Positions 62,001 through 64,000 of a stretch of 64,000 nt of DNA are shown piece by piece. The notes beneath the pieces are model-generated. The model had not been told where the DNA came from, made no database searches, and saw nothing but the letters and a program-made list of their open reading frames with translations. The position numbers and the translations under genes were made by a program. The stretch lies in the NCBI RefSeq assembly GCF_054482525.1, contig NZ_CM137006.1. The stretch is one strand, 5' to 3'. Within the stretch, counting starts at the first letter, position 1. Every line of letters begins with the position of its first letter.

Positions 62001-62115
62001 TTGCTTGTTTTTAAAGAAAAAGAAACAGCGGCTGGTCCGCTGTTTCTGCATTCTTACGGTAAAGATAAAAATAAATAGTGACGCGCTTCGCAACCTTTTC
62101 GTTGGGTAATTATCA

Positions 62116-62132: not shown

Positions 62133-62204
62133 AATATTATGTTAACGGCATGTATATCATTTGGGGTTGCGATGACGACGAACACGCATTTTAGAGGTGA
62201 AGAA

Positions 62205-63890
62205 TTGAAGAAGGTTTGGCTTAACCGTTATCCCGCGGACGTTCCGACGGAGATCAACCCTGACCGTTATCAATCTCTGGTAGATATGTTTGAGCAGTCG
62301 GTCGCGCGCTACGCCGATCAGCCTGCGTTTGTGAATATGGGGGAGGTAATGACCTTCCGCAAGCTGGAAGAACGCAGTCGCGCGTTTGCCGCTTATTTGC
62401 AACAAGGGTTGGGGCTGAAGAAAGGCGATCGCGTTGCGTTGATGATGCCTAACTTATTGCAATATCCGGTGGCGCTGTTTGGCATTTTGCGTGCCGGGAT
62501 GATCGTTGTAAACGTTAACCCGTTGTATACCCCGCGTGAACTTGAGCATCAGCTTAACGATAGCGGCGCATCGGCGATTGTTATCGTGTCTAACTTTGCC
62601 CACACTCTGGAAAAAGTGGTTGATAAAACCGCCGTTCAGCACGTAATTCTGACCCGTATGGGCGATCAGCTATCTACGGCAAAAGGCACGGTAGTCAATT
62701 TCGTTGTTAAATACATCAAGCGTCTGGTGCCGAAATACCATCTGCCAGATGCCATTTCATTTCGTAGCGCCCTGCACAACGGCTACCGGATGCAGTACGT
62801 CAAACCCGAACTGGTGCCGGAAGATTTAGCTTTCCTGCAATACACCGGCGGTACCACTGGTGTGGCGAAAGGCGCGATGCTGACTCACCGCAATATGCTG
62901 GCGAACCTGGAACAGGTTAACGCGACCTATGGTCCGCTGTTGCATCCGGGCAAAGAGCTGGTGGTGACGGCGCTGCCGCTGTATCACATTTTTGCCCTGA
63001 CCATTAACTGCCTGCTGTTTATCGAACTGGGTGGGCAGAACCTGCTTATCACTAACCCGCGCGATATTCCAGGGTTGGTAAAAGAGTTAGCGAAATATCC
63101 GTTTACCGCTATCACTGGCGTTAACACCTTGTTCAATGCGTTGCTGAACAATAAAGAGTTCCAGCAGCTGGATTTCTCCAGTCTGCATCTTTCCGCAGGC
63201 GGAGGGATGCCTGTTCAGCAAGTGGTGGCAGAACGTTGGGTGAAACTGACTGGACAGTATCTGCTGGAAGGTTATGGCCTGACCGAGTGTGCGCCGCTGG
63301 TCAGCGTTAACCCGTATGATATTGATTATCATAGCGGTAGCATCGGTTTGCCGGTGCCATCGACGGAAGCCAAACTGGTGGATGACGACGACAACGAAGT
63401 ACCACCGGGTCAACCGGGTGAGCTTTGTGTCAAAGGACCGCAGGTGATGCTGGGTTACTGGCAGCGTCCGGATGCTACCGATGAAATCATCAAAAATGGC
63501 TGGTTACACACCGGCGACATCGCGGTGATGGATGAAGAAGGATTCCTGCGTATTGTCGATCGCAAAAAAGACATGATTCTGGTTTCCGGTTTTAACGTCT
63601 ATCCCAACGAGATTGAAGATGTCGTCATGCAGCATCCTGGCGTACAGGAAGTCGCGGCTGTTGGCGTACCTTCTGGCTCCAGTGGTGAAGCGGTGAAAAT
63701 CTTCGTAGTGAAAAAAGATCCATCGCTTACCGAAGAGTCACTGGTGACCTTTTGCCGCCGTCAGCTCACGGGCTACAAAGTACCGAAGCTGGTGGAGTTT
63801 CGTGATGAGTTACCGAAATCTAACGTCGGAAAAATTTTGCGACGAGAATTACGTGACGAAGCGCGCGGCAAAGTGGACAATAAAGCCTGA
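62205..63890 (+). CDS. fadD: Long-chain fatty acid-CoA ligase FadD
   Basis: TTG at 62205 gives (M)[32 protein letters not shown]…; 561 aa; AMP-binding motif [14 protein letters not shown]; the track ORF extends upstream in-frame. Confidence 0.93.
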
Positions 63891-63906
63891 GCGTTAAGTC
63901 AGTCGT

Positions 63907-63935
63907 CAGACGCCGGTTAATCCGGCGTTTTTTTT
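63907..63935 (+). terminator. Intrinsic terminator downstream of fadD
   Basis: CGCCGG-TTAATC-CGGCG hairpin followed by a T8 run. Confidence 0.8.
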
Positions 63936-63959
63936 GACGCCCACTAAAGAGAATACAAT

Positions 63960-64000
63960 TTGAATTACCAAATGATTACCACGGACGATGCGCTGGCTTC
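63960..64000 (+). CDS. rnd: Ribonuclease D, first 13 codons only (continues beyond window)
   Basis: TTG AAT TAC CAA ATG ATT ACC ACG GAC GAT GCG CTG GCT reads (M)NYQMITTDDALA, the RNase D N-terminus; rnd is known to initiate at UUG. Confidence 0.7.
   Translation, partial: MNYQMITTDDALA

Follow-up and report, generated by a model that had tools for sequence, protein, structure and literature searches.

The closest described system to the locus analysed here is the leader of the Escherichia coli K-12 rnd gene (Zhang and Deutscher, NAR 1988; J Biol Chem 264:18228, 1989; PNAS 89:2605, 1992). Both the UUG start codon of rnd and its U-rich leader are already known from publications of 1988-1992, and K-12 has a curated annotation for this locus. 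In its summary of Zhang and Deutscher (1992), PMC5934652 presents the U-rich run as an enhancer of rnd translation, and the passage of PMC7769764 that deals with rnd treats this mRNA, with its alternative initiator UUG, as a classic case in which translational enhancers were found. In the part of PMC3575828 that bears on such leaders, a run of eight U lying a short distance upstream of the Shine-Dalgarno (SD) sequence is described as enhancing ribosome attachment, and the U8 of a terminator, when located beside the ribosome-binding site of a reporter, is described as raising activity from 31 to 100 units. According to these literature summaries, the published translational enhancer of rnd is the U-run, and not the stem that precedes it. 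The initial annotation of this DNA had claimed that an upstream stem-loop is required for rnd expression; the UUG start and the existence of an upstream element hold, while the role of enhancer does not go to the stem-loop, since the citing papers name the U-run.

The present locus is the same one. It stands at the end of the window, by which we mean the whole stretch of 64,000 nucleotides that was analysed (contig NZ_CM137006.1 of RefSeq assembly GCF_054482525.1), and all features described below in this window are on its + strand. Over the 201 nt surrounding the rnd start, the window and K-12 MG1655 are one base apart, at position 63954 (T here, A in K-12), which falls in the spacer between the SD sequence and the start codon, and there is no substantive difference between the two leaders. 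We consider, with a probability of about 0.92, that what lies at the end of the window is the region where translation of rnd, the E. coli RNase D gene, is initiated, with a weak UUG start and a leader made of a hairpin and a U-run.

Identity of the rnd gene

Only the beginning of rnd lies within the window. Its first 13 codons plus two bases (63960-64000), i.e. TTG AAT TAC CAA ATG ATT ACC ACG GAC GAT GCG CTG GCT, encode (M)NYQMITTDDALA, and the gene then runs off the window end. The frame was extended by reading it in an E. coli genome that matches the window without a difference over 63400-64000, where it comprises 375 codons. This interval of the window is 100% identical to several E. coli chromosomes and occurs as a single copy, labelled fadD and rnd, in 5425 of 5426 complete E. 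coli genomes. Residues 1-375 of the extended ORF align with residues 1-375 of PDB entry 1yt3_A, "Ribonuclease D" (E = 2.5e-255), with one substitution (E/D at 288), and the same ORF reaches 751.4 bits against the NCBIfam equivalog NF008089 (ribonuclease D; cutoff 516), covering positions 1-375 of 375. It also matches TIGR01388, with 545 bits for a cutoff of 299; because this broader profile begins at residue 5, residues 1-4 of rnd are not family-wide. The DEDDy catalytic residues, identified by a count by hand as D28, E30, D85, Y151 and D155, are present in the translation, and all of them are located beyond the window end.

The gene had initially been named rnd, and this identity is borne out by the 1yt3 alignment and by the NF008089 score. 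Past the window end, no early in-frame stop interrupts the ORF, which continues to 375 codons, and similarity to RNase D is present in the extended product, over its full length with 1yt3 and at 751 bits with NF008089. The coordinates first proposed were correct to within 1-2 bases, and the peptide and the count of 13 codons were correct as well.

The fadD terminator, the SroD RNA and transcription into rnd

The gene upstream of rnd is fadD, which encodes an acyl-CoA synthetase. According to the RefSeq annotation of the identical genome (1306-2991 in that locus), its CDS occupies 62205-63890 of the window; it ends with ...AAT AAA GCC TGA, the stop codon being at 63888-63890. The annotated start of fadD is a TTG (62205-62207), with a good SD sequence, GAGGTG (62194-62199), 5 nt upstream, and is not the point at which the longest ORF opens, ATG 62139. 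The rare TTG start is used by both adjacent genes, fadD and rnd. Further upstream, a hairpin followed by T's (62018-62048; GAAACAGCGG-CTGGT-CCGCTGTTTC) comes directly after the stop codon of yeaY and is probably the terminator of that gene, upstream of the fadD promoter region.

Between fadD and rnd, pattern scanning, folding and covariation all identified a GC-rich stem-loop (63908-63930), which constitutes the intrinsic terminator hairpin of fadD/SroD and is located in the rnd 5' leader. Read from the sequence, it is GACGCCGG-UUAAU-CCGGCGUU at 63909-63929; the pattern scan delimits it at 63908-63930, with 9 pairs, 6 of them G-C, and a loop of 5, followed by a T-run. The eight T's of this run (63928-63935) share bases with the 3' arm of the stem; in the RNA, they form the tail of the terminator as well as the translational enhancer published for rnd. 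They are followed by GACGCCCAC, a TAA (63945-63947), the motif AGAGA (63948-63952), a 7-nt spacer and the TTG at 63960. The distance from the U-run to the TTG is 24 bases, and that from U8 to AGAGA is 12 nt. When folded, the 46-nt hairpin region was more stable than its shuffled counterparts (z = -4.3, 0 of 200 shuffles as good). The number of terminator-like sites, one in 500 bases for a shuffle mean of 0.6, is not exceptional alone.

The activity of this element is documented in the supplement of PMC7815308, a Term-seq map of RNA 3' ends in E. coli K-12. Three datasets have ends on the minus strand at 1888017, 1888018 and 1888020, which are attributed there to fadD/sroD as its primary 3' end, with the rnd ORF 27-29 nt downstream. 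Mapped onto the window, these ends correspond to 63934, 63933 and 63931, i.e. to the seventh, sixth and fourth U of the run. The hairpin is thus a working intrinsic terminator, with a stem-loop directly before a U-tract and in vivo RNA 3' ends within that tract. It had initially been described as a fadD terminator hairpin (63907-63935) with the TTG about 25 bp after it; the scan, the fold and the mapped 3' ends confirm the former, and the 24 bases counted from the end of the T-run agree with the latter.

Conservation was evaluated on the rnd locus of 79 further species of Enterobacteriaceae, 75-99% identical at the protein level (the best 80 of 216 loci), the alignment of which contains 67 distinct sequences drawn from the same best 80 of 216 loci. 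The whole arrangement is kept in the 79 species of this set, and chance therefore cannot explain it. Across the 67 distinct sequences (best 80 of 216 loci), 99.3% of the cells in the stem are paired, and compensatory changes were observed in the stem, from CG to UA in the Cedecea group and from GC to AU in Kluyvera. Among the same best 80 of 216 loci, the U-run has the form U8 in 29 and U6AU in 45 of the 79 species, so the exact U8 is not conserved, and 78 of 79 have 23-25 nt between the end of the run and the start codon of rnd. It should be noted that the run ends in AUG (UUUUUUAUGGGCGC) in 45 of the 79 loci (best 80 of 216), including L025-L029, L055, L060, L070 and L082. This AUG is in frame with rnd in Enterobacter and Dryocola and out of frame in Klebsiella and Kosakonia, and ORF finders could extend rnd to that codon. 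We also considered an ORF that would open within the U-run, upstream of rnd (at UUG 63934 in E. coli and at the AUG of the 45 species with UUUUUUAUG), and rejected it as a conserved element among the best 80 of 216 loci, because its distance to the rnd start, 25, 26 or 27 nt, shifts the frame from species to species and because no SD sequence precedes it.

The terminator hairpin is also the 3' end of a small RNA, SroD, which was missing from the initial annotation. A cmscan search matched SroD (Rfam RF00370) at 63849-63934, with 115.2 bits for a gathering score of 50 (E = 6.6e-25) and over model positions 1-86 of 86, an interval into which fall the fadD 3' end, the terminator hairpin and the greater part of the U-run. 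The same match was found at the same place in 12 of the 13 other species tested. This family is attributed to Vogel et al. (2003). Despite the unambiguous Rfam match, none of the four RefSeq records that we inspected, that of K-12 among them, carries an SroD annotation. SroD is described as encoded at the 3' end of fadD (PMC5874903), and as generated from a 3' UTR under FadR control, with an unknown function (PMC8313858). A candidate RNase E-like motif, GA/AUU, at 63846-63850 adjoins the 5' end of SroD. SroD and the rnd leader have in common the full-length match at 63849-63934 and the terminator hairpin; they differ in that SroD is a terminated or processed 3' fragment of fadD, whereas the rnd leader belongs to read-through transcripts encoding RNase D.

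With no more than 24 nt between the U-run and the start codon there is no room for a promoter, and any rnd mRNA must carry the hairpin and the U-run. A scan of 63500-64000 for promoters with at least 9 of 12 consensus matches returned none. Below this threshold, with 8 of 12 consensus positions, a candidate weak sigma-70 promoter for rnd (63853-63881) is located inside the last fadD codons and consists of GTGACG (63853-63858), a 17-nt spacer and GACAAT (63876-63881); judging from its position, transcription of rnd would start at about 63888-63890. This agrees with the transcription start that Zhang and Deutscher reportedly mapped about 70 nt upstream of the UUG. The combination GTGACG-17-GACAAT was the best match in 14 of 16 leaders (window included) and tied for best in two more (L007 and L064), while Dryocola (L082) had none; this conservation is confounded by fadD coding. 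A search of Cappable-seq supplements (transcription starts) for the rnd coordinates gave no match.

The relationship between the hairpin and its two neighbouring genes is further illustrated by relatives that carry extra hairpins. In Dryocola boscaweniae (L082), the fadD stop is directly followed by a hairpin of its own, AAAGCCGG-UACUA-CCGGCUUU, and two elements made of a hairpin plus a U-run are found between fadD and rnd (2301-2325 and 2449-2475 of that locus), about 125 nt apart, the second of them 25 nt before the rnd TTG. No SroD match was found in this species. Such a two-element layout looks like a duplication or an insertion splitting the two roles. In the Citrobacter amalonaticus group (L010, 2405-2436; also L012 and L019), an extra 13-bp purine/pyrimidine hairpin (AAAGAAGGAAGAA...UUUUUCCUUCUUU) lies between the fadD stop and the rnd hairpin. 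Taken together, the extra hairpins of Dryocola and Citrobacter indicate that the hairpin and the U-run stay with rnd even when other structure follows fadD; as judged from these leaders, the hairpin is tied to rnd, and not to fadD alone.

Initiation codon and role of the leader

An in-frame TAA (63945-63947), read from the sequence five codons upstream of the TTG, closes the frame, and the TTG at 63960-63962 is therefore the first possible start codon of rnd. The SD-like AGAGA (63948-63952), 7 nt before the TTG, is thermodynamically weak: the predicted duplex with the 3' end of 16S rRNA amounts to -2.9 kcal/mol at the TTG site, versus -0.9 kcal/mol for the 20 nt upstream of ATG 63972, and is weaker than that of the median random 20-mer in this window. 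This weak SD sequence, together with the weak UUG codon, fits a gene held at low expression. In a reporter, expression from UUG was 6-8 times less than from AUG or GUG (PMC3592434).

The initiation region was then compared between species, within the best 80 of 216 loci. In the 79 species, the codon aligned with 63960 is TTG in 75 and GTG in 4, and never ATG; the leucine synonyms TTA and CTN do not occur at this position in any of the 79, though neighbouring codons vary synonymously. From the start codon to codon 5, the changes seen in the 67 distinct sequences of these best 80 of 216 loci are almost all at third positions (columns 99, 102 and 105 of the alignment; AAT/AAC, TAC/TAT and CAA/CAG), the exceptions being TTG/GTG (column 94), a second-position change from N to T in 3 of 67 (column 98) and a single change from ATG to ATT at codon 5 (column 108). 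Just upstream, in the same 67 sequences (best 80 of 216 loci), the 7-nt spacer between AGAGA and the TTG varies at each of its positions, and AGAGA is invariant or nearly so (columns 82-86).

The start codon was the only point on which the results disagreed. The curated K-12 record gives rnd a CDS of 1128 nt, meaning a TTG start, whereas the RefSeq automatic annotation starts at the ATG of codon 5 (63972-63974) and yields a protein of 371 aa, in which case the TTG at 63960 and the next three codons would be untranslated leader. We regard this shorter form as extremely improbable, even if several observations go along with it: PGAP places the start at the position equal to 63972 in all three of the independent E. 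coli genomes sampled (3073 in L001, 1873 in L083 and 1873 in L084), the orthologue table of Kim (2012) gives K. pneumoniae KPN_02321 a length of 1116 nt and E. coli b1804 one of 1128 nt, the TIGR01388 profile covers the protein only from residue 5 onwards, and 78 of the 79 species (best 80 of 216 loci) keep the ATG of codon 5. Yet Enterobacter sp. RIT418 (L049) has ATT at this very codon, the 20 nt upstream of the ATG contain no SD-like sequence (-0.9 kcal/mol), and AGAGA, the last A of which is at 63952, stands 19 nt before 63972 and is therefore too far away to serve it. Moreover, the 12 nt from the TTG to the ATG display the period-3 variation of a coding sequence, unlike the freely varying spacer upstream of them, the upstream codon is only TTG or GTG in the 79 species (best 80 of 216 loci), and curated K-12, the 1yt3 sequence and the NF008089 profile all begin at the TTG codon. 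Mutagenesis by Zhang and Deutscher is also said to have confirmed the UUG start, which counts against the ATG, and replacement of this UUG by AUG reportedly raised expression in their work. Third-position variation, the fixed AGAGA, the codon restricted to TTG or GTG, the poor pairing ahead of the ATG and the ATT of L049 together show that rnd starts at the TTG and that its codons 2-4 are translated. The initial annotation, which had rnd start at TTG 63960, is in this respect upheld by the 1128-nt CDS of K-12 and by the comparative data, against the automatic RefSeq start. The RefSeq automatic annotation appears to begin rnd four codons too late in non-K-12 E. coli strains, which has the look of a systematic error, and the annotation of Klebsiella rnd is probably late by four codons likewise. 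This comparative evidence provides grounds to correct the automatic annotation of the rnd start. The N-terminal peptide expected from the TTG start is (f)MNYQMITTDDALA... (fMet-Asn-Tyr-Gln), and that from the ATG start is MITTDD...; the TRAINSPOTTER supplements (genome-wide initiation-site and N-terminal data) contained no rnd entry.

Concerning the leader, its hairpin and U-run could be the fadD terminator only, brought close to rnd by compact packing and playing no part in its expression. The element is indeed a textbook intrinsic terminator, with RNA 3' ends mapped in its U-run, and its conservation and covariation are those expected of any functional terminator. Such a restricted role is nevertheless very unlikely: being so close to the start codon (24 nt), the element must be present in every rnd mRNA, the published summaries give the U-run the role of an enhancer for this gene, and the fadD of Dryocola has a separate hairpin, yet a hairpin and a U-run are kept 25 nt upstream of its rnd. 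That 78 of the 79 species (best 80 of 216 loci) keep 23-25 nt between the U-run and the start codon points in the same direction, as a terminator alone would not need such spacing. Alternatively, the terminator could act mainly as a transcriptional attenuator, the output of rnd being set by read-through and some SroD-like RNA being a by-product. This would be in line with the strong 3' ends that three datasets place 27-29 nt before the rnd ORF, and with the fact that any rnd transcript must pass the terminator. We consider it unlikely, however, as no anti-terminator structure or ligand-binding element is evident and the Rfam search of the leader finds SroD only, as the 5' end of SroD (63849) is upstream of the candidate rnd promoter, and as SroD is described as processed from the 3' end of fadD. 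In the experiments of Zhang and Deutscher, removal of the region reportedly lowered RNase D protein and changed the mRNA little, the opposite of what relief of an attenuator predicts.

For the reading that we favour, that of a translation initiation region in which a weak UUG start is assisted by the U-run, a working scheme can be drawn up from what was observed here, namely the gene identity, the anatomy of the leader, the published in vivo 3' ends in the U-run and the conservation of every element. Transcripts of fadD would end at the hairpin (63908-63930) and U8 (63928-63935), and a stable 86-nt 3' fragment, SroD, would accumulate. The rnd mRNA would be transcribed through the terminator, from the weak promoter in the last fadD codons, by read-through from fadD, or by both. 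Translation from the UUG at 63960 would be helped only by the weak AGAGA 7 nt upstream, which would keep RNase D low, and the single-stranded U-run would act as an enhancer, or ribosome landing site, where binding of the 30S subunit and protein S1 would make initiation possible. In this scheme, we infer the position of the promoter, S1 as the binding partner and low expression as the purpose of the arrangement.

A larger structure may enclose the hairpin. A tentative outer helix (63904-63939) would pair CGUCA (63904-63908) with UGACG (63935-63939) and leave UUUUU (63930-63934) bulged out of the 3' strand; only read-through transcripts could adopt it. Minimum-energy folding gave, in 7 of 7 species, a pairing of 4-6 bases located 5' of the stem with G-rich bases located 3' of the U-run, and in these folds 4-6 mostly U bases are left as a bulge or internal loop. 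The predicted strands, given as 5' side/3' side, are CGUCA/UGACG in E. coli, CGCCCA/UGGGCG in Enterobacter, UGCC/GGCA in Kluyvera, CGUCC/GGGCG in Cedecea and GCGUUC/GGGCGC in Dryocola. In the 67 distinct sequences (best 80 of 216 loci), changes on both sides were observed at 3 of 3 outer pairs, with 85% of the cells paired, and two outer pairs follow paths from C-G to U.G to U-A, one in Escherichia and one in Kluyvera. However, shuffles of the C-rich 5' flank are often equally stabilising (p = 0.07 for the window, with a median of about 0.3 across 55 variants), and the Rfam consensus of SroD pairs the same CGUC with upstream bases instead. As the flank shuffles were not significant and the SroD consensus pairs differently, the outer helix was not accepted as an established structure, and a CGUCA/UGACG pairing that leaves the U-run as a bulge is at most suggestive. 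It is rather doubtful, albeit conceivable, that the terminator would be the core of a conserved two-tier structure in which a bulged, and not free, U-run would recruit 30S and S1 to AGAGA and the UUG. If this were true, a single sequence would be found in two RNAs, SroD when terminated and the rnd leader when read through, each with its own fold and role. To our knowledge, such an outer helix has no earlier description.

Comparison with other translational control systems

This locus offers a clean natural example of one hairpin and one U-run that both terminate transcription of the upstream gene and enhance translation of the downstream one. Such a dual role is relevant to the design of terminator-based riboswitches placed beside ribosome-binding sites (PMC3575828). 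Among the known cases of unusual initiation codons, that of infC, which encodes IF3 and starts with AUU, resembles rnd in that a non-AUG start tunes or holds down a housekeeping RNA or translation factor; it differs in that infC is autoregulated through the discrimination of IF3 against AUU, whereas rnd has no known feedback of this kind. The resemblance extends to A/U-rich enhancers and standby sites, such as the fepB leader, which has a GUG start, and boxA of rrnB (PMC2176067), where, too, an unstructured U-rich tract, upstream of a weak SD sequence and start codon, promotes the binding of 30S. What sets rnd apart from these A/U-rich enhancers is that its U-tract has a second function, as the tail of a working intrinsic terminator.
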